Source: a bacterium
GTDB taxonomy: Bacteria > Patescibacteriota > Minisyncoccia > UBA6257 > GWB1-50-10
Direction of reading: 5' to 3'
DNA length: 62,730 bases
Assembly: GCA_021824045.1 (NCBI GenBank)
Contig: JAKALR010000001.1
Span: 1 to 62,730 of the forward strand
The first letter of the stretch is position 1, and the number at the start of each line of letters is the position of its first letter. The position numbers and the translations under genes were made by a program. The notes beneath the pieces were generated by a model. The model saw only the letters and a list, made by a program, of their open reading frames with translations. It had not been told where the DNA came from and ran no database searches. This document shows positions 2,135-61,550 of the stretch, piece after piece.

Positions 2135-3420
2135 GGGAGAAAATTATATCCCCTGACCTTTTTGTGGTACGCAATGGCGAAGCGATGAGCTTCGTCTCGT
2201 ACTTTTATGAGCGTCGCGAGATCGGTGAATGGCGGAATTCTTCCTATGATATCATTCCGTTTCCGTTCCGGTCCTTTCACGATGCCGACGACCGGGATGG
2301 TAACTCCCGCCTTGTTGAGGATTCCGCGGACGGCGCTCACTTGTCCTCTGCCGCCGTCAATGAGGAAAAGATCGGGTAAAGGCCATCCGCCGGCCGGCGG
2401 AGTTCTTTTGAGGCGCCGTTCGAGAATTTCCCGGAGCATGCCGAAATCGTCCGGTTGAAGAACGGTCTTGATCTTAAATTTCCGATATTCGTTTTTGTCA
2501 GGCTCGTTGTTGGTGAAGACAACCATGGAACCGACCGCCGAAGTGCCGTTGATGTTTGAAATATCATAGCCTTCGATACGGTAATTTTGCTTGTCCGCCA
2601 TAGCCTCGGCGGAGGTGGAAATCTTGTCATCGGAGATGACCGCCACGTCTTGGATGTGCCGGAGGGCGAATAATTGCCGCTTCAGCTCCCCTGCCCACTC
2701 AAAGTCCAAGGCCTTGCTTGCCGACCTCATGTCGCGCTCTATATTCTTTGTTATTCTTTCTTTTTTGCCTTCGAAGATGAGTTTGACGTTCTGTATGTTC
2801 TTCGCATACTCCTCTTTTGAGATCGCTCCGATGCATGTTCCGGGGCAAAGACCGATTTGATAGTCGAAACAAGGCCGTTGTAGGGGCCTTAGCGGAGTCG
2901 GATGAGTTGCATACGGGAATATCCTCCTGATAATCCTCAGGGCTTCGCGGATGCTTGAGGCGGAGGTGAATGGACCGTACCCCGCACCAAGCCGAACGCT
3001 GCGCTCTTCGCGCTCCCGTGCGGGGCGTTTCGTTGGGCGTTTCGTTGGTGACGGGGCGAGTCTTTTGCCTTCTTTAATATCCTTTCCTCTCACCAATAAA
3101 ACCCTGGGATATTTTTCTTTTGTTATGGCGACATAGAGGAAGCTTTTGTCGTCTTTCTCTTTGATGTTGAACGGCGGCTGGTGTTTCTTGATGAGTTTCG
3201 ATTCGAGTATCAGTGCTTCCACGCCCGTATCGGTCTTCTTAAATTCAATTTTACTTATTCCATCCACTAATCCCTCGATCCTTGCGTCGTGAGGTCTCGT
3301 GAAATAGCTCGAGACCCGTCGCTTCAAGTTGACGGCTTTGCCGATATAGAGAATCTTCCCCGCGCCGTCTTTCATGATGTAGACGCCGGGAGTTTCCGGA
3401 AGTTTTGAGTAGAGATTCAT
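2131..3420 (-). CDS. uvrC: excinuclease ABC subunit C, short form (429 aa)
   Basis: GIY-YIG N-terminus (PGVYIMKDGAGKILYIGKAVNLKRRVSSY) and endonuclease core (FLIDGGRGQV..RDEAHRFAIAYHKK). The protein ends right after this core. Confidence 0.85.
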   Translation of the reverse strand: MNLYSKLPETPGVYIMKDGAGKILYIGKAVNLKRRVSSYFTRPHDARIEGLVDGISKIEFKKTDTGVEALILESKLIKKHQPPFNIKEKDDKSFLYVAITKEKYPRVLLVRGKDIKEGKRLAPSPTKRPTKRPAREREERSVRLGAGYGPFTSASSIREALRIIRRIFPYATHPTPLRPLQRPCFDYQIGLCPGTCIGAISKEEYAKNIQNVKLIFEGKKERITKNIERDMRSASKALDFEWAGELKRQLFALRHIQDVAVISDDKISTSAEAMADKQNYRIEGYDISNINGTSAVGSMVVFTNNEPDKNEYRKFKIKTVLQPDDFGMLREILERRLKRTPPAGGWPLPDLFLIDGGRGQVSAVRGILNKAGVTIPVVGIVKGPERKRNDIIGRIPPFTDLATLIKVRDEAHRFAIAYHKKVRGYNFLP

Positions 3421-3456
3421 TACCTATAATTTCTTCTTTTCTCCAATTAAAATCAA

Positions 3457-3600
3457 GCCTGCGGAAATTTGTTTTGAGGAAGCTCTCGGAGGCAAAAAAG
3501 CTTGGTTCCGCCTTTGGCGGATTTTTCGCCGAGAGAGCAGGATGGCTTTTGCCGCTGGAGCAAAAGAACATCCGGTTCCGAGAAATAAGTTTCCGCAGGC
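3457..3600 (-). promoter_or_regulatory. conserved multi-stem intergenic element, copy 1 (candidate structured leader RNA of uvrC)
   Basis: Closing stem GCCTGCGGAAA/TTTCCGCAGGC. Inner stems are GGCAAAAAA/TTTTTCGCC, TCCGCC-TTT-GGCGGA and CTTTTGC-CGCTGGA-GCAAAAG. Homologous to 9737-9881. Confidence 0.6.
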
Positions 3601-3603
3601 GCC

Positions 3604-4464
3604 TCAGTAGTCGTTTCCCGAGATAAAATCGATAAAGCTCTGGAGCGGTTTTTTCACGGGCTTCGGGTGATGCGTCGCTCCCCTGATCTCGCGTATATTG
3701 TTCGCCGTTTCATTCACTCCCACTGCGATGATTTCTTTCGCCGCGCTGAAGTCGTCCCAATGATAGTTCAAGACCGGCGGATGGAGCATGAGGCTGGCCT
3801 CCTTGATCCTTTCTTTGGCTACCTGGTATTCCAGCGCCGAAAAAGCGTCGACGATAGTCGATTTGATGCCGGAGAGAGAGAAACGTTCGTCTTCGATGTC
3901 GGGCCACTTGCTCGAGACGTCGACGCCGATGATATATTCGGCGCCCATTCCTTTTACAATGTCCACGGGAACCGGATTCACGAAACCGCCGTCCATGAGA
4001 AGTTTTCCGTCGATTTCGACGGGTGAGAAAGCGATAGGAAGGGCCGAGCTCGCCTTCACGGCTTTTACGAGGCTGCCTTTGCTGATAACCACCTCATCGC
4101 CGTTCTTAACGTCGGTCGCGATGGCCTTGAATGGTATCTTGGTGTTTTTGATGTCTAATCCGTCGATTTTCTCCGCGAGCATTTTTTCGACGGCTTCTTC
4201 ATCCGTGAAGAGCAAACTCTTTTTTCTCCTCAAATGCTTTCGATGGAAAGAATATTTCTCGGCTATTTCGAGGAATGCCCGTTCTATGAAATCGATGTCC
4301 TCCGTCGCGGCGTAGAGGCCGCCGACAAGGGAACCCATTGAGGTGCCGGCCAGGTAGTCGATTTTAAATCCGGCCTTGAGGAGCGTTTTGATGACCCCGA
4401 TGTGGGCAAGCCCCTTGGCTCCCCCGCCCCCGAGCGCTAATCCTATGGTTTTCGGTTTATTCAT
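3604..4464 (-). CDS. patatin-like phospholipase
   Basis: GLALGGGGAKG oxyanion motif, GTSMGS (GXSXG) nucleophile elbow, downstream DGG. Confidence 0.85.
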   Translation of the reverse strand: MNKPKTIGLALGGGGAKGLAHIGVIKTLLKAGFKIDYLAGTSMGSLVGGLYAATEDIDFIERAFLEIAEKYSFHRKHLRRKKSLLFTDEEAVEKMLAEKIDGLDIKNTKIPFKAIATDVKNGDEVVISKGSLVKAVKASSALPIAFSPVEIDGKLLMDGGFVNPVPVDIVKGMGAEYIIGVDVSSKWPDIEDERFSLSGIKSTIVDAFSALEYQVAKERIKEASLMLHPPVLNYHWDDFSAAKEIIAVGVNETANNIREIRGATHHPKPVKKPLQSFIDFISGNDY

Positions 4465-4513
4465 CTCCTAAATTATAAAATATTAATTTGAAATTAGAAA
4501 TTGTCGAAAATTG

Positions 4514-4547
4514 ATTAAAAATTAAAAATTGGAAATTAAAAATTCAG
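4514..4547. repeat. AT-rich intergenic motif AAAAATTAAAAATTGGAAATTAAAAATTC, copy 1
   Basis: Near-identical strings at 7155-7181, 20387-20418 and 22341-22372, with a partial copy at 31248-31268. Always upstream of a minus-strand gene start. Confidence 0.8.
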
Positions 4548-4560
4548 AAAGTTCTCAAAA

Positions 4561-7086
4561 TTAATCCTTGAGAACTTTCTTGAGGTACTCGCCGGTGAAA
4601 CTCCCGGCTTTTTTGGCGATGATTTCCGGATTTCCCGCGGCGATCAGCCGGCCGCCTTTTTCCCCTCCCTCGGGGCCGAGATCGATTACCCAGTCGGCGG
4701 TTTTCACGACGTCCAGGTTGTGCTCGATGACGACGATGGTATTCCCCCGTTCGACGAGTTTTTGGAGGACCTCGATGAGTTTCTTGACATCGGCGAAGTG
4801 GAGACCGGTTGTCGGCTCGTCCAAAAGGTAAAGCGTGCGTCTCGTGTCGCGCTTGCCGAGTTCGGCGCCAAGTTTGATCCGCTGTGCTTCTCCGCCGGAA
4901 AGGGTTGTTGCCGACTGTCCGAGTTTCAAGTACCCGAGACCGACCTCATTCAGTATTTTCAATTTGTCCTCAATCCAGGGGATGTCGTCGAAGAACTTCG
5001 TCGCTTCCTCGATGGTCATTTCGAGGACTTCGAAAATGTTCTTTTCCTGGTACTCAACTTCCAGCGTTTCCCGGTCGAATCGCTTTCCTTTGCAGATGTC
5101 GCAGGTTACGTAGACCGTCGGCAGGAAGTGCATTTCGATCGCGATGACGCCGTGACCCTCGCAGTTCTCGCATCGCCCGCCGCGGACGTTGAAGCTGAAC
5201 CGCCCCGGCTTGTATCCCCTCACCCGCGCATCGGGCGTCGAAGCGAAGAGATCGCGGATTGGTCCCCAGGCGCCGACATACGTGGCGGGGTTCGATCTGG
5301 GCGTCCGGCCGATCGGCGATTGGTCGATGTTGATGATACGGTTCAAGTATTCGGTTCCGATGATCTCTTTGCATTGTCCCGTCTTGAAATGCGATCCGTT
5401 GAATTTGTTGGACAAGTTCTTGAAAAGGACGTCGTACACAAGCGTGCTTTTGCCTGATCCGGAAACGCCGGTGACGGCCGTGAACCGGCGGAGCGGGATA
5501 TCGACGTCGAGATTCCTCAGGTTGTTTTCCGTGGCGCCTTTTACTTTCAAGAAGTCGTGGGTTTTCGGGACAGCTCTCCGCGTTTTCGGAATCGCGATGA
5601 ATTCTTCGCCCCGGAGGTAATCCAAGGTCAACGATGTTTGCTTCTTGTCGGAAAAGACCTGGGGAATCGGGCCGTGGGCGACAACTTTCCCGCCGTGGAC
5701 GCCGGCGCCCGGGCCGATGTCGACGAGATAGTCCGACTCGCGGATGGTATCTTCATCATGTTCCACGACGATGATGGTGTTCCCGAGATCGCGGAGGTTT
5801 TTGAGCGTCTGGATGAGTTTCGCGTTGTCTTTCTGGTGGAGACCAATCGTCGGCTCGTCGAGAATGTAGAGGGCTCCCACGAGGCGCGATCCGATCTGGG
5901 AAGCCAGGCGGATCCGCTGCGACTCCCCGCCCGAAAGCGTCCCGGCTTTGCGGTCGAGTGTCAGGTATTCGAGTCCGACGTCAATCATAAATTTCAGACG
6001 ATTCTTAATCTCTTTCATCGGCACTTCGGCGATCATGAGGGAACTCTCGTTTTTCTTGAGTTTCGTTTCGAGTTTTGTGAAAAAATCGAACGAGTTCACG
6101 ATTGAAAAAGCGGTGACCTCGGCGATATTCTTGTCATCGATGAGCACATTTAAGCTTTCCGTCTTGAGCCGTTTCCCGAGGCAGGTCGGACATATTTTTT
6201 CCGACCAGGGATTTTCGACGCCGAGGCCGTGGCAGGTTTCGCAGGCGCCGAAGGGGCTGTTGAACGAAAAGAGCCGCGGTTCGATCTCGGGGAAGGAAAA
6301 GCCGTCCACGGGGCAGGTGTATTTGGCGGAAAGGGATACCTCCTTGTCGGTAATGACGGTCACGACGTCGTTGCCGTATTTCAACCCGTTTTCGATGCTC
6401 TCCGCGAGGCGCAGGCGGTTGTCCTTATTCCGGAAATCGAGGGCCGCGGGGATTCGGTCAATCACGAGATCGATCGAGTGCTGCTTATAACGGCTGAGAT
6501 CGATTCGCTCCCTGAGGCTCGCGTATTTGCCGTCGATCCGGACCTCCGAGAATCCGGCGTTCAGGAAGTCGTAGAGCATTTGGTAGTACTCTCCCTTCCT
6601 GCCGCGGACGACGGGTGCCAAGATCACCATATTCCGTTTTTCCTTCGTTTCTTTGTAAATTTGGATTGCGATGTCGACGATCTCTTCCTGTGTCATCTTC
6701 TTGATCTCGCGGCCGCAGAGCGGGCAGTGCGGGACGCCCACGCGCGCGAAGAGAACGCGGAGGTAGTCGTAGATTTCCGTGATGGTGGCGACCGTCGAGC
6801 GCGGATTCGCGCTGTGGTGTTTCTGATCGATGGAGATGGCCGGCGACAATCCTTCGATTTCATCGACGTCCGGCTTGTCGAGGCTGCCCAAAAACTGCCT
6901 GGCATAGGCCGAAAGGGATTCGATGTATCGCCGCTGTCCTTCGGCGAAGATGGTGTCGAAGGCCAACGACGATTTGCCTGACCCGGAAAGTCCCGTCATG
7001 ACGATCATTTTGTCGCGCGGGATTTCGAGGTTGATATTCTTCAAATTGTGCTCGCGGGCACCTTTGATAATTATTTTATCGGTCAT
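4561..7086 (-). CDS. uvrA: excinuclease ABC subunit A (841 aa, insertion domain absent)
   Basis: Two ABC modules ([18 protein letters not shown]; LSGGE signatures) and zinc CxxC pairs. Confidence 0.95.
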
Positions 7087-7154
7087 GGGTTTGAAATTTT
7101 TAATTTTATAAATAATTTTCTCATGTTTAAAACATTAAGAAATTAAAAGGTTTA

Positions 7155-7181
7155 TTTAAAAATTGGAAATTAAAAATTCAG
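7155..7181. repeat. AT-rich intergenic motif, copy 2
   Basis: TTTAAAAATTGGAAATTAAAAATTCAG. The flanking ~70 nt up to the uvrA start also resembles the rsmI upstream region. Confidence 0.8.
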
Positions 7182-7274
7182 TCATTGCGCATACGCGCCA
7201 ATGCCCCTCGGTTCGCTTTCCGGGAGGGTATAAGGCGAGTCTAATATAAAACCTGCCGAAGGTCAAAGTCAGAA

Positions 7275-7607
7275 CTATTTTTTCTTGCTTTGGTCTACGG
7301 TTTTTTCTTTGAATTTTTGAAGATCATCCTTCACCTTGTTTTTAACCATGTCGATGGCGGTCCGGAGGTTGATGTTCTCATTCTCGGCGAAGAGCTTTTT
7401 CCCGGGCAGCTCCAGGTCTACGGAAGCATGGAACACGTCCCCGTGCTTGTGGTGCTTGGTGGAGCGCCCCACTTCAACGAAAGCGATCACCTCCCCCTTT
7501 GTCTCGAATCGCTTGATAATCCTCCCGAGAGGCGTCAGTTTCATTTCGATATAGGTTTTAATCGACGGCGTCAAATCGAGTCCCGTGCTTTCGATGGTTA
7601 TTTTCAT
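7275..7607 (-). CDS. hpf: ribosome hibernation promoting factor (HPF/RaiA family)
   Basis: MKITIESTGLDLTPSIKTYIEMKL.. has typical short-HPF length and layout. Confidence 0.85.
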   Translation of the reverse strand: MKITIESTGLDLTPSIKTYIEMKLTPLGRIIKRFETKGEVIAFVEVGRSTKHHKHGDVFHASVDLELPGKKLFAENENINLRTAIDMVKNKVKDDLQKFKEKTVDQSKKK

Positions 7608-7610
7608 GAA

Positions 7611-7712
7611 GTAATTATACGGTAATACGGTAGTAATTTGTAGTAATATGATTGTAATACATGGTACTACGAATTACGCGAAGCAAATTACTACGTATTT
7701 CCACTGTATTAC
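7611..7712. repeat. phased GTAAT-box array (5 direct copies, then 3 inverted ATTAC)
   Basis: GTAAT at 7611, 7622, 7633, 7643 and 7654; ATTAC at 7673, 7687 and 7708. A TATAAT at 7614-7619 (minus) lies 6 nt from the hpf ATG. Confidence 0.7.
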
Positions 7713-9712
7713 TTTACTTTTTTCGAAAGTATCCTGATCTCGTCCCGAAGGATCGCCGCAAGCTCGAAATCGAGCCGTTCCGCCGCTTCTTTCATTTCTT
7801 TTTCTTTCTGCTTGAGGAGCTTCTCGAGCACCGTCTTCGATTTCGGAAGCGGCTTCGTTTCGAGGTTCAGGATATCCTCCGCGGGGAGAATGTCCTTGAT
7901 TTCTTTCACGATCGTCTTCGGCGTGATATTGTGTTTTTTATTGTACGCGACCTGGATTTTCCTCCTCCGGTCGGTTTCTTTCACCGCCCGCTCGATGGAG
8001 CCGGTGATATGGTCCGCGTAGAGGAGCACTTCGCCTTCGACGTTCCTCGCCGCCCGGCCGATGGTCTGGATGAGCGATGTTTCGCTTCGCAGGAACCCCT
8101 CCTTGTCGGCGTCCAAAATGGCGACAAGCGACACTTCCGGCAGATCAAGTCCTTCCCGAAGGAGGTTCACGCCGACCAAAACGTCGATCTCCCCTTTCCG
8201 AAGTTTCGTGAGAATCCGGATCCGGTCCAAGGTATCCACGTCGCTGTGCAAATAAGCAACTTGTAGCTTATAACTTGTACCTTGGAGCCCAAGACGTTTT
8301 CCTGAATCTTCGAGGTTGCCGAGGTATTCCGAAAGATCTTCCGCCATGCGTTTGGTAAGAGTGGTTACCAAAACCCGTTCGTTGCGGGCTACACGTTGCA
8401 CGATTCGAGGTACAAGATCTTGTATTTGGCCTTTCACGGGACGGATCGTAATTTTCGGATCGACAAGGCCGGTCGGCCGGATAATCTGCTCGACGACCTG
8501 CGAGCTTTTCTCCTTTTCGTAGGCGCCGGGCGTGGCTGACATGAAGATGGATTGATGGATCTTCTTTTTGAATTCTTCGAATCGCAAGGGTCGGTTGTCC
8601 GCTGCGGAGGGCAGTCGGAAACCGTACTCGATAAGCGTCTTTTTGCGCGAGGCGTCGCCGTGATACATGCCCTCAAGCTGCGGGATTGTCACGTGCGATT
8701 CGTCGATGACGGTCAAAAAATCATCCGGGAAATAATCCAAGAGCGTATCCGGCGGATCCCCCGCTTTCCTCCCGGAGAGCGCCCGGGAATAGTTTTCGAT
8801 GCCGTTGCAGTAGCCGACCTCGCGGATCATGGCCATGTCGGCCTTGGTTCTCCTTTCCAATCTTTCCGCTTCCAGCGGTTTTCGTTCTTTTTCGAATTTC
8901 TTGAGCTGTTTTTTGAGTTCTTCCCCGATCTCTTTCAAGGCCCGCTCCCGGTCCGGCGCTGCGGTGATGAAATGTTTCGCCGGAGCGATGTAGACCTCGT
9001 TCACGGTTTTCGTTTCCCCCGGCCTGAAGCCCTCCACGGGATTGATTTCATATATCTTTTGGATGATGCCGTTCTTGAGTTCGAGGTTGTAAATGTTTTC
9101 GATGCCCGGCGGCATGATTTCCCAGTTATCTCCGCGAACCCGGAACGTGCCCCGCGTAAGATCGGCGGTGGTCCTCGAGAATTGGAGGTTCACCAACTTT
9201 TTGATAAGCTCGTGCCGCTCCAGTTTCGTCCCCGGCTCAAGCTTGATGATATTCTCGGCGTATACCTCGGGAGCGCCGAGGCCGTAAATGCAGGAGACGG
9301 ATGCGACCACGATGACGTCCTTCCGCGTGAGAAGGGCCGCCGTCGCGGCGTGACGGAGCTTGTCGATCTCGTCGTTGATCATTGCTTCCTTGCCGATGTA
9401 GGTGTCCGACGTCGGGATGTACGCTTCGGGCTGGTAGTAGTCGTAGTACGAGACGAAATAATTCACGGAGTTATGCGGGAAAAGATCCCTGAGCTCGTTC
9501 GTGAGCTGGGCCGCCAGCGTCTTGTTGTGGGCGATGACCAAGGTCGGTTTCTGGACGCGCAGGATGACGTTCGCGATGGTGAACGTTTTGCCGCTGCCCG
9601 TAACACCCAAAAGCGTCTGGTTTTCGTAACCCCTTTCAAGGCCCTTTGTGAGTTTATCTATAGCCTGCGGCTGATCCCCGGCAGGTTTGTTTTTCGAAAT
9701 AATCTCGAACAT
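7709..9712 (-). CDS. uvrB: excinuclease ABC subunit B
   Basis: GVTGSGKTF Walker A, VIDESHVT helicase motif II, C-terminal UVR motif (AAERLDFELAAILRDEI). Confidence 0.95.
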   Translation of the reverse strand: MFEIISKNKPAGDQPQAIDKLTKGLERGYENQTLLGVTGSGKTFTIANVILRVQKPTLVIAHNKTLAAQLTNELRDLFPHNSVNYFVSYYDYYQPEAYIPTSDTYIGKEAMINDEIDKLRHAATAALLTRKDVIVVASVSCIYGLGAPEVYAENIIKLEPGTKLERHELIKKLVNLQFSRTTADLTRGTFRVRGDNWEIMPPGIENIYNLELKNGIIQKIYEINPVEGFRPGETKTVNEVYIAPAKHFITAAPDRERALKEIGEELKKQLKKFEKERKPLEAERLERRTKADMAMIREVGYCNGIENYSRALSGRKAGDPPDTLLDYFPDDFLTVIDESHVTIPQLEGMYHGDASRKKTLIEYGFRLPSAADNRPLRFEEFKKKIHQSIFMSATPGAYEKEKSSQVVEQIIRPTGLVDPKITIRPVKGQIQDLVPRIVQRVARNERVLVTTLTKRMAEDLSEYLGNLEDSGKRLGLQGTSYKLQVAYLHSDVDTLDRIRILTKLRKGEIDVLVGVNLLREGLDLPEVSLVAILDADKEGFLRSETSLIQTIGRAARNVEGEVLLYADHITGSIERAVKETDRRRKIQVAYNKKHNITPKTIVKEIKDILPAEDILNLETKPLPKSKTVLEKLLKQKEKEMKEAAERLDFELAAILRDEIRILSKKVK

Positions 9713-9736
9713 ACGTTATTTATATATTAAACGAGG

Positions 9737-9881
9737 AAAATGGGAAATGCCCGTGCGGCAGCTCCCGGAGGCGAAAAAGCTCGGTTCCGCCGAAGACGGA
9801 TTTTTCGCCGAGGGATAGCAGTGGCGGCTCCGCTCGCTGGAAGCGGAGAACGCCCGATGCCGGCAGGGCATTTCCCATTTT
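9737..9881 (-). promoter_or_regulatory. conserved multi-stem intergenic element, copy 2 (candidate structured leader RNA of uvrB)
   Basis: Closing stem AAAATGGGAAATGCCC/GGGCATTTCCCATTTT. Inner stems are GGCGAAAAA/TTTTTCGCC and CTCCGCT-CGCTGGA-AGCGGAG. Homologous to 3457-3600. Confidence 0.6.
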
Positions 9882-9890
9882 TCGAGTTGG

Positions 9891-11488: not shown

Positions 11489-11512
11489 CGCGCTTCGATT
11501 AATCGAAGCGCG
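11489..11512. repeat. perfect 24-bp palindrome CGCGCTTCGATTAATCGAAGCGCG
   Basis: Centred on the stop codon of the TrpR-like gene. Shares the core GCTTCGATTAATCGAAGC with 11920-11943. Confidence 0.85.
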
Positions 11513-11919: not shown

Positions 11920-11943
11920 GCCGCTTCGATTAATCGAAGCGGC
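11920..11943. repeat. perfect 24-bp palindrome GCCGCTTCGATTAATCGAAGCGGC
   Basis: Lies ~50 nt upstream of the TrpR-like start. Same 18-bp core as 11489-11512. Confidence 0.85.
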
Positions 11944-12212: not shown

Positions 12213-12512
12213 TTAGGGCGTGCTGGTCGTCGAGGTGACCGTGCCGGTCGTCCCCGGTACCACGATTATAAGCCCTTCTCCCGGATTTTTGTAGTTGGTC
12301 TGGGCTTTCAGCTGCTTGATCAGGTTCGCCGGATCTTGGAAGTATTGGATTTCCGAAGACAAGTTCCGGTTTTCCTGCTGGAGTTGATTATAGTCGACCT
12401 GCAACGCCTGAGCTTGGCTTTCAGCGGCGTTTTTAGAACTATACAGGCTTATGAATCCCCATCCGATGACGGCGACCACCGCCATGAACACGATTGTCTT
12501 CCAGTACTTCAT
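12213..12512 (-). CDS. FtsB/DivIC-like septum formation initiator
   Basis: N-terminal TM helix followed by a coiled coil (QALQVDYNQLQQENRNLSSEIQYF). Confidence 0.6.
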   Translation of the reverse strand: MKYWKTIVFMAVVAVIGWGFISLYSSKNAAESQAQALQVDYNQLQQENRNLSSEIQYFQDPANLIKQLKAQTNYKNPGEGLIIVVPGTTGTVTSTTSTP

Positions 12513-12619
12513 CCCGTTAGAAACAAAACGCCTTTTTCATAAGCGGTTGCCTATGATGCGCGGTTAATTCGACTTGGTAAGTGATCATCTTTTTCATAAG
12601 TTTATGGTTTCTCACGGGA
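12513..12619. mobile_element. MITE-like element family 1, copy 1 (107 nt) inserted at a start codon
   Basis: Ends CCCGTTAGAAAC..GTTTCTCACGGG, internal direct repeat TTTTTCATAAG x2, flanked by TTCAT (12508-12512) and TTCAT (12620-12624). Confidence 0.8.
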
Positions 12620-12696
12620 TTCATTACCTCCTATTCTACACCCTCTCAGCCGCTGGATGAAAGAGTGGAGACGAAGGAGCGGAGGATTCTGCGGTT

Positions 12697-16614: not shown

Positions 16615-17757
16615 TTAGGCGATGGTTTTGAACGTATCGAGGAGCGCCCCGGCTGATTGTTTCCAGTCGAATCGTTTCGCATTTTCCCGGCCGGCGGCGA
16701 TCAATCGTTCCTTGGTCTTATTTTCCAACAAAACGTCTTCTATTGCCAATGCCAGCTGGTATGATTTCCAGGGATTCACGAGGATGGCGCTTTCCCCCAG
16801 CACTTCAGGCATGGGTCCCCGGTCGGAGGCCACGACGGGCGTTCCGCAGATTTGCGCCTCGAGGCACGGAAACGCGAATCCTTCGAAGAAAGACGGATAC
16901 ACGAAGACCGATGCGAGGTTGTAGAGCATGAGCAGATCCTCTTCCGTCGCTCGCCCCCAGATCAGGATGTCGTCGCGGAACGGAGAATGTTCCGCTTCGG
17001 CGAATATCTTCTCGTAGAGCCATCCCCGCGCGCCGACCAAGATCAGTTTCACGTTCTTGAATTGTTCTTTTTGCTTCAGGAGATTGAAGGCTCGGATGGT
17101 CCCGATCGCGTTTTTTCGGGGTTCCAGCGTCCCGACCTGGAGCAGGAACGGGAAATCAATATTTTTCGCCCTGGGGAACTCTCGGAGGCGTTCGTCGCCG
17201 GATTCCAGCTGCCGGTAGGAATTGTTCACGCCGGGATAGATGCGGACGATCTTCTCCGGCTTCACGTGAAACCGGTCGATGATGCTTTGGCGCGTGAACT
17301 CCGATACCGCTACGATGCGTCCCGCTTCCCGGATTTGCTTTTCGTAATTTTGTCTCCAGTGCCAGAAGTTTTTCGTCCACGTGAAGAATTCCGGGTAAAG
17401 AACGAAAGAAAGATCATGGATGGTAAGGATGTGTTTGCCGGGATTTTCAAACGACAGGATGTCCATGTGGGGGCTCCAGTAGACATCCGCCGCGACGAGG
17501 CGGTCTATTTTGGGAAAATTGAAGAAACGGTTGGCGATTCCCCAGACTTTATTGGGTATGCCGTAGTTCAGCCACGTTCCCTTCACCGTGTTTTCGAGGG
17601 GGTATCCGCCGCGGTTTTTTCCGGAGCGATTGGCGAAGAAAAGGAATTCTTCACCGGGCGCTTCGGCCGCGAGGCTCTTCGTCATGAGCCGGGTGTATTC
17701 GGGGACGCCCGAGACGATGGAAGCGTACAGTGAACGCACATCGATGAATATTTTCAT
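16615..17757 (-). CDS. glycosyltransferase family 4
   Basis: EGFAFPCLEAQICGTPVVASDRGPMPEV (EX7E region). Confidence 0.85.
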   Translation of the reverse strand: MKIFIDVRSLYASIVSGVPEYTRLMTKSLAAEAPGEEFLFFANRSGKNRGGYPLENTVKGTWLNYGIPNKVWGIANRFFNFPKIDRLVAADVYWSPHMDILSFENPGKHILTIHDLSFVLYPEFFTWTKNFWHWRQNYEKQIREAGRIVAVSEFTRQSIIDRFHVKPEKIVRIYPGVNNSYRQLESGDERLREFPRAKNIDFPFLLQVGTLEPRKNAIGTIRAFNLLKQKEQFKNVKLILVGARGWLYEKIFAEAEHSPFRDDILIWGRATEEDLLMLYNLASVFVYPSFFEGFAFPCLEAQICGTPVVASDRGPMPEVLGESAILVNPWKSYQLALAIEDVLLENKTKERLIAAGRENAKRFDWKQSAGALLDTFKTIA

Positions 17758-17863
17758 CCCGTTAGAAACAAAGCACTTTCTTCATAGGCGGTTGCCTATA
17801 GTGCGCAGTTGACTCGACTTTGTGAGTGATTTACTTTTTATAAGTTTGCGGTTTCTCACGGGA
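17758..17863. mobile_element. MITE-like element family 1, copy 2 (106 nt) inserted at a start codon
   Basis: Same termini as copy 1, flanked by TTCAT (17753-17757) and TTCAT (17864-17868). Confidence 0.8.
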
Positions 17864-17877
17864 TTCATGAAACGGTT

Positions 17878-20386: not shown

Positions 20387-20418
20387 TTTAAAAATTAAAA
20401 ATTGGAAATTAAAAATTT
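20387..20418. repeat. AT-rich intergenic motif, copy 3
   Basis: TTTAAAAATTAAAAATTGGAAATTAAAAATTT, upstream of rsmI. Confidence 0.8.
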
Positions 20419-20549
20419 ATTTCAAACCTTTACTTTAGATTTTATCCTTGATTGAGCGTTTCTGACTTTGCAATGCTGACGATATCGAAAAAGAGCTGGC
20501 GTCCGGTATGCCGGATTGCCCGGCCTGTTTCCAATTTTAGCACGATTTT

Positions 20550-21323
20550 TCATTTTACCCGAAACAGTTTCTTTACCTTTTTGTCGCGCGACCATCCGGC
20601 AATCCTTTTTTTCATTAGCTCTTCCCCGTTCCGATAGTCTTTTTCTATTACTTTTATGACCTCAACGAAGGCGTCGTCGATTATCCCGCTCTTTTCCGTT
20701 GAATGGCGGTAGACCGCAGAGAGGGCATAGCCGAAACCGTTTGCGATGAGTGGCCCTCCTTTTTTATTTGACGTTTTCCCTATCCACGCCGTAATTGTTT
20801 TTCTGTGGCCGATGATTGCGAGGAGCGTCCTTCTCATGCCGTCGAATACATGGAAGCCATCCGGTCCTTCCCAGAGGAATATCGGATAATCGTCTCGCTC
20901 TTGGTGCTTTGAAAACCCCGTTTTTAAAATGGCACCCCTCGCCTTTTTGTTGGTTTCCCATAATTTCAAGAATTGCATGGGGTCGCTTTTACACTTCGCC
21001 ATTGTGTAACGATCGATTTCCGGAGACATCCCGGTAAGCACTATCTTCTCCAGGGGAATTTCTTTGCGCGTCCAAATAAATCGTGTATCCGATAATATCC
21101 GGAAAACAGCTTTGAGTTTCCAGTCTTCGGCTATGGCCGCGACGAGATTCCAAAATGACGATTCGCCCTGCGTTTTTGGGAAGTTCGCAATTTCCCGGTC
21201 TATTGCCTGCCACGTTTTTTTGTCTTTGATGCTGCCCAGTATCTTTCTAAATTCATGCTGCAAATATTGGATTGCCATCTTTTCGGCGTTTTTCGACGGG
21301 GTCAATTTCAGCTCATTTTTCAT
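20550..21323 (-). CDS. hypothetical protein with weak ParB/sulfiredoxin-like motif
   Basis: FHVFDGMRRTLLAII resembles the DGxxR core of ParB-N/Srx folds. Start overlaps the mltG stop. Visibly AT-rich. Confidence 0.55.
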   Translation of the reverse strand: MKNELKLTPSKNAEKMAIQYLQHEFRKILGSIKDKKTWQAIDREIANFPKTQGESSFWNLVAAIAEDWKLKAVFRILSDTRFIWTRKEIPLEKIVLTGMSPEIDRYTMAKCKSDPMQFLKLWETNKKARGAILKTGFSKHQERDDYPIFLWEGPDGFHVFDGMRRTLLAIIGHRKTITAWIGKTSNKKGGPLIANGFGYALSAVYRHSTEKSGIIDDAFVEVIKVIEKDYRNGEELMKKRIAGWSRDKKVKKLFRVK

Positions 21324-22340: not shown

Positions 22341-22372
22341 TTTAAAAATTAAAAATTGGAAATTAAAAATTC
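22341..22372. repeat. AT-rich intergenic motif, copy 4
   Basis: TTTAAAAATTAAAAATTGGAAATTAAAAATTC, between divergent mltG and the TrpR-like gene. Confidence 0.8.
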
Positions 22373-22698: not shown

Positions 22699-22932
22699 TT
22701 ACTCGCCGATGTATTTGAATCGGGGGACTTTTTGGCCGTTGACTTCCACTTTTTCGAGAAACATATTGAGCGGGCGGACCCAGATTTGGCCTTCGTCGTA
22801 GAGTGCTTGGTAGACGACCATCTCTTCCATCGTCTCGCTGTGTTTAGCCACTCCGAGAACCCGGTACCGGTGATGTTCCGGTTTGAAATGTTCGTAGACA
22901 CCCAATTTGAGGTTTTTTGCTTCTTCGGTCAT
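22699..22932 (-). CDS. DUF1653 family protein
   Basis: YEHFKPEHHRYRVLGVAKHSETMEEMVVYQALY..WVRPLNMF. Confidence 0.7.
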   Translation of the reverse strand: MTEEAKNLKLGVYEHFKPEHHRYRVLGVAKHSETMEEMVVYQALYDEGQIWVRPLNMFLEKVEVNGQKVPRFKYIGE

Positions 22933-23510
22933 GATTTTCTTTTAATGAAGCCGTCGAAGGTTATTCTTTCGTAGTCCAATTCATCGATGCCGTTCATTTT
23001 GTAAATTTGGTTAGTGGAAAAGATTTTTTGATCGGCGGAATCGAGACGGAGAAGCTTTTCAGCTTCGCTGACTTTCTCCCATGACGGCGCTTCGATTTCG
23101 AGATACGGATTGAGTTTCGGCCAGGTATCGATGTCGAATTCAATATCCCCTTTTTGCCAGCGGATTCTTTTGTTTTCCTCATAGAACTTATAGATCATGC
23201 CGATGCTCAGGAGGAAATCGACTGTTTTTTGGTAATCGTTCACGATGATTTCCACTTCTTTCATGCTCCGGTCGGAAGTTTTTCCATCATCGCTCGAAAC
23301 TCCCAGCCGCTGCTTGAAGGTAAGGGTAATGCGTTCGCCTTCATCCCGCAGACGAACCCATGCCGCCTGCTTATCTAAGGGAAATCCCGGGAAATCGAAA
23401 ACCTGCCGGCGATAGAAGTATTCACCGACTTTATGCGCCCCAATCGCCTTCAACTTTTCTTCGATTGCCGCCGGATCGATATCAAGGAACTTCACTTCTT
23501 TTTCTTCCAT
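22929..23510 (-). CDS. CYTH domain protein (class IV adenylyl cyclase / triphosphate tunnel metalloenzyme)
   Basis: EVKFLDID..WVRLRDEGERITLTFK..EVEI..FDIDTWP..LEIE. Confidence 0.75.
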   Translation of the reverse strand: MEEKEVKFLDIDPAAIEEKLKAIGAHKVGEYFYRRQVFDFPGFPLDKQAAWVRLRDEGERITLTFKQRLGVSSDDGKTSDRSMKEVEIIVNDYQKTVDFLLSIGMIYKFYEENKRIRWQKGDIEFDIDTWPKLNPYLEIEAPSWEKVSEAEKLLRLDSADQKIFSTNQIYKMNGIDELDYERITFDGFIKRKS

Positions 23511-23617
23511 CCCGTTAGAAACAAAACACCTTTTTTATAAGCAGCTACCTATGATGTGCTGCTGACTCGACTTTATGCGCGGACATATTTTTCATAAGTT
23601 TGTGGTTTCTCACGGGA
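23511..23617. mobile_element. MITE-like element family 1, copy 3 (107 nt) inserted at a start codon
   Basis: Same termini, flanked by TCCAT (23506-23510) and TCCAT (23618-23622). The flank differs from copies 1 and 2 but is duplicated on both sides. Confidence 0.8.
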
Positions 23618-23641
23618 TCCATGGCTTTTATGGTAACCTCT

Positions 23642-24112
23642 TCACTTAAGATTTTCAATTTCCGAAAGTTTATTCGCGAGAATCACGTCGTTCTCTCCGA
23701 AGAGAAATCTTCCTCTGAACTTCTTCCCTTCTAAAAAGAGCGGGAGCCAGAATTTGTCATCCGGCCACATTGTATCGTAGGGAATATCGGCTATGTCAAA
23801 CCATTGCGGTTTCATTTCCTCACTTTCTTTCGGTGTCCCGGTAAAACCTTTTATCTGAAAAACGTGTACCTCGAAGATCCCCCCATTTATTTGGAACTCG
23901 AATTCCAAAATGCCCTGCTTTTCCATTTCGGTTGCCGTAATACCGGCCTCTTCGTGGAGTTCGCGTTTTGCCCCCTCTTCCAAGCTTTCGTCCTTGTTCA
24001 ATTTTCCCCCGAAGCCGTTCCACCGTCCGGCGCCGAATCCCCGTTTCTTCATGCCGAGAAGGATTTTCGGATGCTCGTAGATTAAACAGAGCGTGAGCGG
24101 CGTCTTATTCAT
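23642..24112 (-). CDS. Nudix hydrolase (MutT-like)
   Basis: GGKLNKDESLEEGAKRELHEEAGI Nudix box. Start taken at MNKTPL. Confidence 0.8.
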   Translation of the reverse strand: MNKTPLTLCLIYEHPKILLGMKKRGFGAGRWNGFGGKLNKDESLEEGAKRELHEEAGITATEMEKQGILEFEFQINGGIFEVHVFQIKGFTGTPKESEEMKPQWFDIADIPYDTMWPDDKFWLPLFLEGKKFRGRFLFGENDVILANKLSEIENLK

Positions 24113-25130
24113 CGAGTATTTCCCCCTTCGCATAATTGGCCAGGACTTTTTTGCTCGGGAAGAAAATCGGCTGCGGCAGCTTGCTGAGAGAGAACCACCG
24201 CCACTCCGTTATTTCGTCCGGTTCTTTCGCCCGCACTCTTCCCTTGAAGTCGGTGGCGAGAAGTCCGACCGTGACGAAGTGCGAATCTTTCGTCATGTCG
24301 CTCGAAATGCTTATTAGTTTCAGCTTATTCTTGTCGATCTTGATCCCGGTTTCTTCAAGGGTTTCCCGGTATGCTCCATCCTTGAAACGTTCATGAAATT
24401 CCAGTTTCCCGCCCGGCATGGTCCACGTTCCCCCGCCGTGGAGTTCTGAGTCGGCTTTTCGGGGATCACCGTTTCTCTTGCCGAGAAGAATTTTCCCGTT
24501 TTTGAGGATCATGACGCCGACGCCGTCGCCGATCCTTTGTTTCATAACGCCTATGACGAAGCTGTTCAAGAGCCATGAGCTCGATTGGATTTTTCCGCCG
24601 CGGCCGATGTTAAAAATCATCTTCGTCCCCATTTTTTTGCAGAGTGCTACTTCGGGAATATTCTTTCTTGTCCGGTCTCCGCCATTCACGAAAATATCCG
24701 GTTTCAGTTCTTTCAGTTCGGCCGAGACGCTCATATCTTTCGGGTTTGGGGGGTGCGAGGTTAGAATCACCCGATCGACTTCTCCTAAGGCTTCAATGAT
24801 CTCCTTTCGCTCTTTTTGCGGCATGAAGGCAAATCCTTTTTTCTTTTTGAGCCAGTTGTCGTTGTTTAGAATGACGATGAGTTTGTCGCCCAGCCTTTTC
24901 GCTTCCCGGAACATCCGGATATGGCCGATATGTACGGGGTCGAATCCCCCGCTCACGGCGACGATGACGGGTTTCTTTTTACCATAGGCGTTTTCCGTCC
25001 CGCACCATGGACAGAACCACTTCTTTTTCGATCGCGGCGCGTCGCCGATTGTCCACCACTTCTTGCACCTGCTGCAGCTCATGTGGTGAAGTTTCTCAAC
25101 GCTCCGCTTGCTTTTGATTGTTTCTCTCAT
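24105..25130 (-). CDS. zinc-ribbon / cytidylyltransferase-like / Nudix fusion protein
   Basis: CSRCKKWW..CPWCG, then AVSGGFDPVHIGHIRMF (HxGH nucleotidyltransferase), then GGKLEFHERFKDGAYRETLEETGI. Confidence 0.75.
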   Translation of the reverse strand: MRETIKSKRSVEKLHHMSCSRCKKWWTIGDAPRSKKKWFCPWCGTENAYGKKKPVIVAVSGGFDPVHIGHIRMFREAKRLGDKLIVILNNDNWLKKKKGFAFMPQKERKEIIEALGEVDRVILTSHPPNPKDMSVSAELKELKPDIFVNGGDRTRKNIPEVALCKKMGTKMIFNIGRGGKIQSSSWLLNSFVIGVMKQRIGDGVGVMILKNGKILLGKRNGDPRKADSELHGGGTWTMPGGKLEFHERFKDGAYRETLEETGIKIDKNKLKLISISSDMTKDSHFVTVGLLATDFKGRVRAKEPDEITEWRWFSLSKLPQPIFFPSKKVLANYAKGEILDE

Positions 25131-28341: not shown

Positions 28342-28377
28342 GTCCTCACTTTTTCCCATATGGGAAAAAGTGAGGAC
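28342..28377. repeat. perfect 36-bp palindrome GTCCTCACTTTTTCCCATATGGGAAAAAGTGAGGAC
   Basis: Related palindrome TCACTTTTTCCCCTAGGGGAAAAAGTGA at 37056-37083. Confidence 0.85.
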
Positions 28378-34701: not shown

Positions 34702-34727
34702 GGTAATTACTTTTTAATTTGAGATTT

Positions 34728-35612
34728 TTAATTTTTAAGACAGATAGCTCTGAGTTTCGCCGAGCGACTTTTGGGATTTCGGGCGATCTCTTCCCGTTCC
34801 GGTTTGATCACTTTCTTGTTTAAAAATGCTATGGTGTTCTCTTGGTGAAGCAATTTGAAGTTTTCTTTTACAATCTTGTCTTCGATTGAATGAAAGGTGA
34901 TGACGCCGAGGCGTCCTCCCGGTTTCAGGATGCCGGTCAGTTCCGCGAGGAGCTTTCTGATGTTTTCGAGTTCGCTGTTCACGTAGATTCTGATTGCCTG
35001 GAATGTTCTCGTGGCGGGGCTGATTCTCGGATCTTTGAAATGGAACGCGGAATTCACGATTTCGGAAAGTTCGTGGGCAGTCTCGATTTTCTTTTTTCGC
35101 CGCTCCTCCACGATTCGTTTCGCGATCCTCCGGGAATTCCGTTCATCGCCGTAGTGGTAGATAATGTCCGCCAGTTCGTTCTCTCGGAGGGTGTTCACCG
35201 TTTCATAGGCCGTGCGGTCGTTCCCGTCGGGGTCGTATCGCATATCGAGCAGCTCGTCTTTCATGAAACTGAATCCCCGCTTCGATTCGTCGATGTGCCA
35301 GAACGAGAACCCGAGATCCACAATCATACCGTCGGCTTTCGGGAGATTGTGCTTCGCGAGGATTGCCGGGGTGTCGGCGTAGTTCCCGTGTTTGAGGATG
35401 ATCGTATCGTTCGGCCACTTGTCCGGCAGATCGGAGTTGTGTTCGAGAATTTCCCGATCCCAGTCGATTCCCAGAAGCGTTCCTCCCGGGGTGATCCGTT
35501 TCAGGATCTCTTTCGAATGTCCCCCTTCGCCGAAGGTTCCGTCGATGAAGAATTCCCCTTCTAACGGATTCAAAATTGCTATTGCTTCTTTTAAAAGAAC
35601 CGGAGTATGCAT
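34728..35612 (-). CDS. rsmH: 16S rRNA (cytosine1402-N4)-methyltransferase
   Basis: HTPVLLKEAI..DGTFGEGGHS, full-length RsmH/MraW. Confidence 0.95.
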   Translation of the reverse strand: MHTPVLLKEAIAILNPLEGEFFIDGTFGEGGHSKEILKRITPGGTLLGIDWDREILEHNSDLPDKWPNDTIILKHGNYADTPAILAKHNLPKADGMIVDLGFSFWHIDESKRGFSFMKDELLDMRYDPDGNDRTAYETVNTLRENELADIIYHYGDERNSRRIAKRIVEERRKKKIETAHELSEIVNSAFHFKDPRISPATRTFQAIRIYVNSELENIRKLLAELTGILKPGGRLGVITFHSIEDKIVKENFKLLHQENTIAFLNKKVIKPEREEIARNPKSRSAKLRAICLKN

Positions 35613-37021: not shown

Positions 37022-37055
37022 AACTTTATTATAGTAGTAATCTTTATTTTTCTCC

Positions 37056-37083
37056 TCACTTTTTCCCCTAGGGGAAAAAGTGA
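37056..37083. repeat. palindrome TCACTTTTTCCCCTAGGGGAAAAAGTGA
   Basis: Overlaps the expected -35 region of the hydrolase promoter. Related to 28342-28377. Confidence 0.8.
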
Positions 37084-37164
37084 AGCACTTCAATTAATTG
37101 AAGCGCCTGAGGCAAAAAGATGCCCTGGATTCCGCGAGGCGCGAAAATCCAGGGTTGAAAATCT

Positions 37165-58751: not shown

Positions 58752-58799
58752 TGGATTTCATAGTAACAATTACCTATCTAAAAGTCAAAATTTTAACAA

Positions 58800-58942
58800 G
58801 AAACCGTCTTATTTCGAGCGAATCATTCGGAGACCGAGCGGGCACGGCTTCCGCCCTTGAGGCGGAAGAGCGAGGTCGAGGATAAGCGCGGGCCGCCGGC
58901 TGGGGCGGGCCGACGCGGGTTCGCTCGAAATAAGACGGTTTC
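58800..58942. repeat. perfect 23-bp inverted repeat enclosing a 97-nt GC-rich spacer
   Basis: GAAACCGTCTTATTTCGAGCGAA at 58800-58822 pairs with TTCGCTCGAAATAAGACGGTTTC at 58920-58942. Inner hairpin CTTCCGCC..GGCGGAAG. Confidence 0.85.
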
Positions 58943-58948
58943 TCATCC

Positions 58949-60910: not shown

Positions 60911-61259
60911 TGGACCTGGGGAGAATCGAACTCCCGGCTCCTCATTGTTCCCGCACTTTCCCGAGCAGGGGCGAGGTTTTAAGTGTGCAATCCCGTACAA
61001 TGTGGACCGTAGCGGATTCGAACCGCTGACCTCCTCATTGCAAATGAGGTGCTCTACCAACTAAGCTAACGGCCCCTTTCTTGAATTTAAGTATAAAAAA
61101 AGCACAGAATTCTCGCAAACCGCCTAGAAATGAGCCGCCACATCGTACGGGACAAAAGCGGTATTCTTCCGGGGCAAAATTACTTATATATAAATCACCG
61201 TAGGTACTTATCCGTTGAAAGCAAAATCGTTTGTTTTCAACCCACTGAACTATAGGCCC
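60911..61259 (-). pseudogene. degenerate tRNA-like shell Y enclosing tRNA-Ala
   Basis: 5' part: GGGCCTATAGTTCAGTGGG, a 74-nt insert, then GAATACCGCTTTTG. Helix TCCCGTAC (61145-61152) pairs with GTACGGGA (60991-60998). 3' part has T-arm GGGAG-TTCGATT-CTCCC and acceptor CAGGTCCA (G3:U70 possible). Confidence 0.55.
61003..61075 (-). tRNA. tRNA-Ala(UGC)
   Basis: GGGCCGT/ACGGTCC with G3:U70, anticodon loop TTTGCAA, T-arm AGCGG-TTCGAAT-CCGCT. Own promoter-like TTGCGA-17-TATACT at 61090-61118. Confidence 0.9.
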
Positions 61260-61271
61260 TCCGTCACATCA

Positions 61272-61550
61272 TGGTGGGCATGGAAGGAATCGAACCTTCG
61301 ACCTCTGTCTTACTTGCCCCGCACCAAAATTGCGCTTTTCATGTCTGTGCGCGTGAATGGAATCGAACCATTGACCTCTGTCTTATCAGGACAGCGTTCT
61401 ACCACTGAACTACACGCGCAATTTTCGGTGCGGGGTCAGGCAGCGTTCTTCCGGGGTGAAAATGCCATATATAACTTAGCATAAGTATTCACCCGTTGAA
61501 AGCAAAGTTTCTTGCTTTCAACCCACTGAACTACATGCCCATTATTTTTC
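61272..61550 (-). pseudogene. interrupted tRNA-Ile(GAU)-like shell X enclosing an intact tRNA-Ile
   Basis: GGGCATG..CATGCCCACCA acceptor pair. 83-nt insert in the D-loop (61449-61531). Insert after anticodon nt 35 is bounded by CCCCGCACCGAAAATTG / CAATTTTGGTGCGGGG. One base is missing in the anticodon stem. Confidence 0.65.
61348..61419 (-). tRNA. tRNA-Ile(GAU)
   Basis: GCGCGTG/CACGCGC acceptor, anticodon arm CTGTC-CTGATAA-GACAG, T-arm AATGG-TTCGATT-CCATT. Confidence 0.9.

Follow-up and report, generated by a model that had tools for sequence, protein, structure and literature searches.

Bacterial MITEs (miniature transposable elements with inverted repeats), such as the Correia/NEMIS elements of Neisseria and those derived from insertion sequences (IS), are about 100 bp long, non-coding and multicopy, with terminal inverted repeats (TIRs) and a short target-site duplication (TSD). 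Their copies are transcribed together with the genes beside them and are polymorphic for presence and absence. The same holds for the element described here, copy 3 of a repeat in the first 62,730 nucleotides of contig JAKALR010000001.1 (assembly GCA_021824045.1, Patescibacteriota); this whole stretch is called the window below. Copy 3 is shorter than the approximate 500-bp limit for MITEs and has no transposase coding sequence, its TIRs are 13 bp long, its TSD varies with the site and is accompanied by empty alleles, and multiple related copies exist. In contrast to the known bacterial MITEs, the only elements with matching ends encode a 94-aa GIY-YIG nuclease and not a DDE transposase. The family also inserts exactly at start codons, in one orientation and with regeneration of the codon, and its ends co-vary so that a 13-bp stem is kept.

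Three other systems are close. Elements of the IS200/IS605, PATE and REP/RAYT groups likewise have a tiny nuclease gene, depend on DNA hairpins, insert in a fixed orientation at a short asymmetric TTNAY-like target and have many non-coding derivatives. However, they use a HUH Y1 transposase, have two subterminal hairpins and make no target duplication, whereas in the present family the termini pair end to end, the 4-bp duplication is a true one and the nuclease has a GIY-YIG fold; neither HUH TnpA, nor subterminal hairpins, nor an element-borne right cleavage sequence is found. Free-standing GIY-YIG homing genes (phage T4 seg, the I-TevI family) are likewise small selfish nuclease genes wedged between host genes, but they have extra DNA-binding domains, no TIRs and no target duplication, and they occupy only homologous alleles. 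Here the protein is a bare 94-aa domain, and the unit is neither restricted to one homologous locus nor free of target duplications, as duplications accompany it at many unrelated loci. Among proteins of solved structure, the nearest in sequence are stand-alone Slx1-like/UPF0213 proteins (YhbQ, BH0048, EF2693), which are regarded as products of ordinary chromosomal genes with unknown function; stand-alone Slx1-like GIY-YIG proteins have been called a "minimal variant" of the fold (PMC1564403). We did not find a mobile context, terminal repeats or a start-codon association of these proteins described in the searched literature. No account of an element like the present one was found by topic, by repeat sequences or by peptide termini, in a search whose coverage excluded most subscription journals.

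We favour, with some reserve, the following reading: copy 3 is a non-autonomous, MITE-like member of a mobile family that is widespread in Patescibacteria, its movement depends on a nuclease, and the expression of its host gene is kept by translational coupling. The features at the locus are as follows (TSD, target-site duplication; ORF, open reading frame).

23510 to 23617, minus strand: copy 3, non-coding, MITE-like, 108 nt including the terminal T..A pair; without counterpart at the orthologous site of the related contigs L001-L004.
23506 to 23509, no strand: gene-proximal TSD, TCCA on the plus strand and TGGA on the gene strand.
23618 to 23621, no strand: upstream copy of the TSD, TCCA on the plus strand and TGGA on the gene strand.
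23605 to 23617, minus strand: 5' arm of the 13-bp terminal stem, TCCCGTGAGAAAC on the gene strand.
23510 to 23522, minus strand: 3' arm of the terminal stem, GTTTCTAACGGGA; holds a TAA 4 nt before the host ATG.
23545 to 23622, minus strand: mini-ORF opened by the displaced original ATG (23622-23620), MDPVRNHKLMKNMSAHKVESAAHHR and stop; ends 34 nt before the CYTH ATG.
23540 to 23563, no strand: copy-specific internal hairpin, AGCAGC(12 nt)GCTGCT.
22929 to 23510, minus strand: host gene, CYTH-domain protein of 193 aa; its start codon is regenerated by the insertion.
23642 to 24133, minus strand: upstream host gene, NUDIX hydrolase; 20 nt from the CYTH gene in the empty allele.

Copy 3 stands directly 5' of the ATG of the minus-strand CYTH gene. 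An earlier note, made from the letters of the window, had placed TCCAT on both sides of the element, next to a gene beginning ATGGA, and its coordinates match the sequence: TCCAT is found at 23506-23510 and again at 23618-23622. The plus strand reads TTCTTCCAT, then the interior CCCGTTAGAAAC...GTTTCTCACGGGA (23511-23617), then TCCATGGC, and the terminal inverted repeats are CCCGTKAGAAAC. The element is thus 107 nt long, or 108 nt when the terminal T..A pair is counted. The ORF at 22929-23510 begins ATGGAAGAA, and its match to the CYTH domain of Pfam starts at residue 1. On the gene strand the insertion point is A/TGGA/A: TGGA is duplicated, and 108 nt with the 13-bp repeat (T)CCCGT[T/G]AGAAAC...GTTTCTAACGGG(A) are added. 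The last base of the 3' arm is the A of the working CYTH start codon, and the host ORF is intact because this base restores the A of ATG. The original ATG and the upstream translation signals of the host now lie in front of the element, whose only reading frame is the 25-codon mini-ORF.

Evidence for an insertion comes from empty alleles. The CYTH protein has relatives with 93-94% identity in a Patescibacteria population, and in four of their contigs (L001-L004) the NUDIX-CYTH junction reads ...AACC ATGGA AGAAAAAG, with ATGGA once and no element. This is the empty site in a related genome that the earlier note had regarded as decisive. At this junction the window is longer by exactly 112 bases, i.e. 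the element and one copy of the flank, if a spacer difference of 1 nt is set aside. Another of the window's copies, copy 2, has an empty site in the relatives L132 and L133 (a 20-kb stretch, the same relative), which read ...GGAGC ATGAA AATCTTC..., and at a third site the window itself is empty:

20549 to 20553, minus strand: empty target ATGAA within an ATGA stop/start overlap; the relative L001/L002 has a 106-nt copy there.

The relative's copy sits before a 42-codon ORF. Two close genomes hence differ at three sites within about 11 kb in whether the element is there, and from this we conclude that the element is an insertion that has moved recently. That copy 3 is an insertion with a target duplication is practically certain. 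Locus L132 ends inside lepA, short of the orthologous site of copy 1.

To examine the flanks we used a set of 144 elements with usable flanks (45-293 nt long, at most two mismatches per end) from more than 100 contigs, mostly of the Candidate Phyla Radiation (CPR). The main layout on the gene strand is ATGRR, T, CCCGTTAGAAAC...GTTTCTAACGGG, and ATGRR again with a long ORF. The 4-nt flanks (N2-N5) are identical in 94 of the 144 elements, compared with 26.4 on average and 40 at most in 2000 shuffles of the pairings; the co-variation of the flanks with the site, which the earlier note had seen in the window, is far beyond chance. The flank variants include TGAG, TGGA, TGTA, TGCA, TGCG and TGGG. 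On one strand the targets take the forms TTCA^T (at start codons), TTGA^C, TTTA^C and TTCA^C; the first of these is A^TGAA in reverse complement.

The bases that precede CCCG and follow CGGG are complementary to one another in 135 of the 144 elements (T..A in 94, C..G in 40). Eight elements are informative about the origin of this pair, with TTG or GTG upstream and ATG downstream, or with ATG upstream, GTG downstream and C..G ends. In all eight the base beside CGGG pairs with the base before CCCG, so the fifth flank base is carried by the element, and therefore the duplication is 4 bp (TCCA on the plus strand, TGGA on the gene strand). The element is (T/C)CCCG...CGGG(A/G), its duplication is 4 bp, occasionally 3 or 5, and it donates the first base of the regenerated start codon. 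In copy 3, T23510 and A23617 form the terminal pair and the original A of the host is at 23622; copy 3 by itself cannot tell a 4-bp from a 5-bp duplication. The target-site duplication claimed in the earlier note is thus upheld by the empty alleles and the flank co-variation, with its length corrected from 5 to 4 bp. A 5-bp duplication with one extra base was also considered and was replaced by the 4-bp duplication with an element-borne terminal pair.

The two ends also vary together. Positions 10-12 of the repeat differ between elements yet stay complementary (GAC/GTC, GGC/GCC, GAT/ATC, GCC/GGC, GAA/TTC, GCT/AGC). Pairing is at least 94% at stem positions 0-12, i.e. over 13 bp, and at background level at position 13. 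Compensatory pair changes occur at stem positions 0, 11 and 12, and a further variant has CCTG/CAGG. This pattern argues that the terminal stem matters. In the subfamily of the window copies, which has eight members across genomes, the 13-bp ends TCCCGTGAGAAAC and GTTTCTAACGGGA have one G.A mismatch. Of 90 pairs of start-codon copies whose interiors are recognisably similar, all 90 agree in their orientation to the gene. Tandem double insertions with one common flank are found in L029, L030 and L074, and because the tandem copies share a flank, a duplicated site can be hit again.

A genome scan with one genome per species, requiring both 12-mer ends, gave at least 112 stretches. Nearly all of these are from CPR bacteria (Saccharibacteria, Paceibacteria, Doudna-, Berkel-, Jorgensen-, Vogel-, Zambryski- and Nomurabacteria), and a handful belong to bins labelled Omnitrophota, Pirellulales or WOR-3. 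In the window the exact 12-mer ends occur six times, all in copies 1-3, against an expectation by chance that we estimate at about 0.01. The other two copies are:

12512 to 12619, minus strand: copy 1, before a DivIC-like gene (12213-12512); TSD TTCA at 12508-12511 and 12620-12623.
17757 to 17863, minus strand: copy 2, before a GT4 glycosyltransferase gene (16615-17757); TSD TTCA at 17753-17756 and 17864-17867.

Without the terminal pair they span 12513-12618 and 17758-17862, flanked by TTCAT on both sides. Each stands directly 5' of the ATG of a minus-strand gene; the earlier note calls copy 3 the third start-codon insertion. The genes downstream of the three copies are functionally unrelated. 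The copies are 69-83% identical over their whole length; since this holds for the interiors, the short form itself has spread. Copy 3, flanked by TGGA, is nearer to copy 1 (TGAA; 83%) than copy 2 (TGAA; 69%) is. In copy 1 the displaced ATG is preceded by AGGAGG and opens a 35-codon mini-ORF that runs to a TAA 4 nt short of the host ATG; the mini-ORFs of copies 2 and 3 stop 24 nt and 34 nt before the host ATG, respectively. The GCAGC..GCTGC hairpin that the earlier note ascribed to copy 3 is present, as AGCAGC (23540-23545) and GCTGCT (23558-23563), and both strands form it in their minimum-free-energy folds. Copies 1 and 2 fold differently there, so that the hairpin is confined to copy 3; it shows no sign of importance and is incidental.

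The frame from the displaced upstream ATG was read through every element. In two of them, L037 (275 nt) and L100 (278 nt), it encodes a protein of 94-95 aa that matches the Pfam family GIY-YIG (PF01541) with E-values of 1.8e-16 and 5.6e-17. The long members, 272-281 nt (about 277 bp), have the same ends, 4-bp duplication, position and orientation as the short copies, and encode nothing but this 94-aa Slx1/UPF0213-like nuclease. The nuclease ORF takes the duplicated host ATG as its start, and its stop is the TGA inside the regenerated ATGA of the host. A search of a set of 5.8 billion proteins gave at least 3540 homologues. Among the best 120 of these, 95 are exactly 94 aa long, 70 start with MNPVRD and 96 end with FLSLTG. 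These termini are the inverted repeat: MNPVRD is ATG AAT CCC GTT AGA GAC, i.e. the flank and the 5' repeat, and TCT CTA ACG GGA followed by TGA (...SLTG and stop) is the 3' repeat and the host ATGA. One variant lies between an mreD-like gene and PBP2 and another upstream of an NTP-transferase gene, both with the 4-nt ATGA overlap. In 80 metagenome loci, found by protein similarity, the 272-281-nt units occupy dozens of different sites, and most of these loci read ATGRR, T CCCGTTAGAG..CTCTAACGGG, ATGRR and then a long ORF.

The median dN/dS of 0.13 (38 intact ORFs, repeat-encoded ends excluded) shows purifying selection, and together with conservation of at least 90% in the Y.Y, WYTG, DLRKR..H and RE motifs it points to a functional nuclease. 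The nearest solved structures are UPF0213 BH0048 (1zg2, E-value 4e-8) and an SLX1 homologue (7wme), together with 1ywl. No relative of the nuclease was found in viral contigs. The partners with matching ends, flanks and position encode a putative mobilising enzyme that is a GIY-YIG nuclease and not a recognised transposase class. The copies of the window very probably belong to this GIY-YIG-associated family.

From these data a mechanism can be proposed. The Slx1-like nuclease would recognise the terminal stem, with the paired ends forming a hairpin or cruciform, and would make staggered 4-nt cuts at the asymmetric TTNA^Y target, after which repair and ligation by the host would complete the insertion. 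Acting in trans, the GIY-YIG nuclease would also mobilise the short copies. That this nuclease is the mobilising enzyme is, judged from sequence, slightly more probable than the contrary.

The second part of the proposal concerns the host gene. Ribosomes would start at the displaced ATG, read the ORF or mini-ORF of the element, terminate in or beside the 3' repeat (at TAA, at the TGA overlap or through an in-frame fusion), and re-initiate at the regenerated ATG. The 3' repeat is harmless to the host gene in all three frames. Frame 1 reads TTC TAA CGGG ATG, with a stop 4 nt before the host ATG; frame 2, which is that of the nuclease, reads CTA ACG GGA TGA, with a stop on the ATGA overlap; and frame 3 reads GTT TCT AAC GGG ATG, an in-frame fusion that is seen in L095. 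Of the 62 short start-codon copies, 28 keep the mini-ORF open as far as the host start (21 with TAA, six with the ATGA overlap, one fusion), compared with 7.8 +/- 2.7 (maximum 16) for shuffled interiors and 13 for flipped elements. These observations agree with termination-reinitiation coupling. Whether such coupling keeps the host gene expressed seems to us evenly balanced. Only insertions that regenerate an essential signal would survive selection, and copies would pile up at start codons for this reason.

A number of observations weigh against the proposed mechanism. GIY-YIG enzymes only cut, and the joining step would need host functions. By tblastn the window contains no GIY-YIG coding sequence, and there is no full-length element in its 62.7 kb; because of this its three copies are non-autonomous, besides being non-coding and MITE-like. 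Beyond the repeats, the similarity of the short window copies to three full-length elements is no better than in a shuffled control, so the link between short and long forms rests on ends, flanks, position and orientation. For the short copies repeat positions 1-12 were set by the search pattern, and related copies are not independent, so that the statistics of orientation and open mini-ORFs overstate significance. An empty allele was not found for a full-length element when sought via the mreD-like neighbour, the best relative being 49% identical. Finally, 34 of the 62 short copies stop early, and tight coupling is not universal.

The absence of a nuclease gene from the window and of demonstrable homology between short and long interiors would also suit an ordinary MITE that is moved by a conventional DDE-type transposase encoded elsewhere, with the GIY-YIG ORF as a passenger or selfish coloniser. 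Moreover, DDE elements are classically recognised by terminal inverted repeats with a short target duplication. However, in about 1 Mb of loci we found no larger autonomous element or transposase gene bounded by these ends, beyond the 275-278-nt GIY-YIG units, and the long form has room only for the 94-aa ORF, which contains the repeats. Compensatory changes of the ends are unexpected if a transposase binds each end independently, and DDE elements do not usually keep one strict orientation at a non-palindromic target. We therefore consider a DDE origin unlikely, although it is the best of the alternatives.

The one-strand targets and the fixed orientation bring to mind a single-strand element of the IS200/IS605 type (PATE/REP-like), inserted 3' of TTNAY and carrying the right-hand 5-mer itself, in which case the duplication would be only apparent. 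TTCAT, TTGAC, TTTAC and TTCAC do resemble IS200/IS605 targets such as TTAC and TTGAT, hairpin pairing is kept, and an empty site alone cannot separate such a model from a true duplication. The flanks do so: they co-vary between closely related copies in one genome, as copy 3 (TGGA) is nearer to copy 1 (TGAA) than copy 2 is, and the right-hand flank must for this reason come from the target and not from the donor. Furthermore, 79 elements have a right flank other than TGAA, and 45 of these still have identical 4-nt flanks. The termini pair with each other instead of forming two subterminal hairpins, and GIY-YIG is the only encoded protein, with no HUH transposase. An IS200/IS605-like element is hence improbable.

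Still less probable is classical homing, in which the GIY-YIG nuclease cuts empty alleles and homologous repair copies the element between homologous loci only. GIY-YIG is the classic fold of homing endonucleases, and single full-length copies stay at one and the same locus in many samples, but homing does not create target duplications. The family occupies dozens of unrelated sites, each with its own 4-bp duplication, and three non-homologous sites within the window. Homing as the sole mechanism is contradicted, and it could add to the spread between strains. A conserved cis-regulatory leader of the host genes, i.e. a structured 5' untranslated region or leader peptide that is not mobile, would account for the constant place immediately 5' of the start codon, the single orientation, the stable terminal stem and the enrichment of open mini-ORFs, but is practically untenable, being contradicted by the precise 112-nt presence/absence between close relatives at three loci, each with a duplicated flank, and opposed by the functionally unrelated downstream genes, the tandem double insertions with a common flank (L029), the members in -35 boxes and pilin leader peptides, and the lack of any match in Rfam (Rfam 15: none at gathering score over the whole window, none at E <= 10 for 23400-23750).

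Two further ideas were tried. A model of sticky-end cutting and religation would explain the orientation; it was weakened as the elements do not group by flank type (copy 3 versus copies 1 and 2). A likeness to the attC sites of integrons (GTTAGAA / TTCTAAC) was rejected, with the core order reversed and the flanking genes syntenic housekeeping genes.

Movement by the GIY-YIG nuclease, the reading that we prefer, has a stronger version. The 272-281-bp units would be a new class of autonomous transposons, with a bare 94-residue Slx1-like GIY-YIG nuclease as the sole encoded protein and the 13-bp stem as the structure that it recognises. Such units would borrow the ribosome-binding site and ATG of the host, hand translation back at ATGA and insert only where a signal is regenerated (start codons, -35 boxes, prepilin cleavage sites), and the window copies would be their hitch-hikers. 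We hold this version tentatively, as somewhat short of an even case; such units would be the smallest autonomous transposons known to us. The family is a mobile element with TIRs and a TSD, and the chance that it is a new transposon class is substantial.

If the GIY-YIG protein does mobilise the element, a nuclease fold is added to the repertoire of transposases (DDE, HUH, serine, tyrosine, Cas1), and a minimal autonomous mobile element of about 277 bp is defined. Whatever the enzyme, the family represents a parasite strategy for tightly packed, reduced genomes: to enter an expression signal, rebuild it through the duplication and the element's own last base, and use the displaced copy for its own translation. 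Thousands of CPR annotations as "GIY-YIG nuclease family protein", or misnamed "excinuclease ABC subunit C", are probably this element, and next to short copies a called start codon can be off by about 112 nt. The presence/absence polymorphisms can serve as strain markers, and the family provides a natural setting in which termination-reinitiation coupling can be tested in uncultivated bacteria.

Several variants of the family were also seen. A sister subfamily has C..G ends, in the form TTGA/C...G/TTGAC (L014 4161-4255, L031 2268-2374, L088 163-261, L097 5831-5940, L033 2434-2530; further loci in L013, L022 and L055). In several of its copies a -10-like hexamer (TATAAT, TACAAT, CATAAT) lies 17 nt after the downstream TTGAC(A), and C..G copies appear to split and regenerate -35 promoter boxes as T..A copies do start codons. 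In L111 (1238-1333, 1742-1837, 4790-4885) the element is in frame (102 nt, 34 codons) in three type IV pilin-like leader peptides, with the G/FT prepilin cleavage motif duplicated, ...TG FTPLETVNFNGFLDLFKMGDFKKNKENKNKFLTG FTLVELLVVIAIIGIL; presumably prepilin peptidase would remove the inserted peptide together with the leader. These in-frame insertions resemble the Rickettsia palindromic elements, palindromic mini-elements in reduced genomes that are tolerated through translation-compatible insertion. We know of no nuclease partner, start-codon targeting or regenerated signal for the Rickettsia elements. Hairpin versions of 50-60 nt with the same 12-nt ends, sometimes in tandem, occur in L017 (6125-6230), L074 (3439-3544) and L083 (4726-4785), on contigs binned as Omnitrophota or Sungbacteria.

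In two loci a GIY-YIG ORF is directly upstream of a short copy (L075, 4948-5217 and 5210-5328; L010, about 5098-5274 beside 4946-5069). This ORF is of the same family, starts with MFYTYV, lacks the repeat-encoded termini and runs with its 3' end into the short copy; possibly it is what is left of a full-length element after decay or rearrangement. The mreD-like/PBP2 junction of the 49%-identical relative (L214, 795-935) holds a short element with the compensated end variant CCTGTTAGAAT...ATTTCTAACAGG (CCTG/CAGG), and the same junction carries a full-length GIY-YIG element in L117. The junction is either a hot spot or a place where an old insertion has decayed in situ.

The window contains other repeats. 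Two unrelated inverted-repeat units are found at 58799-58943, with perfect 24-nt arms AGAAACCGTCTTATTTCGAGCGAA around a GC-rich core of 97 nt, and at 9730-9888, with 31-nt arms 97 nt apart; the inverted-repeat units of the window have no convincing Rfam match (best P9, E 0.54). The segments 3475-3536 and 9754-9815 have 62 nt in common at 84% identity. An AT-rich intergenic motif, TTAAAAATTAAAAATTGGAAATTAAAAATT, occurs at least five times (4515-4544, 7150-7178, 20388-20417, 22342-22371 and, inverted, 34711-34738) and may mark a promoter or a terminator, or be a separate repeat family. A 31-nt palindrome, TCACTTTTTCCC..GGGAAAAAGTGA, is present twice (28346-28376, 37053-37083), and a perfect 20-nt palindrome, CGCTTCGATTAATCGAAGCG, twice with a diverged third copy (11491-11510, 11922-11941, 37086-37105). 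A 74-nt direct repeat, 80% identical and with an internal GTTGAAAGCAAA..TTTGCTTTCAAC hairpin, lies between the genes for tRNA-Ala and tRNA-Ile and beyond them (61186-61259, 61467-61540). In the relative L132, the region 2569-7918, upstream of the syntenic block, encodes an N6/N4 methyltransferase, an HNH nuclease, a PIN protein and a phage-type integrase, and is probably an integrated element.

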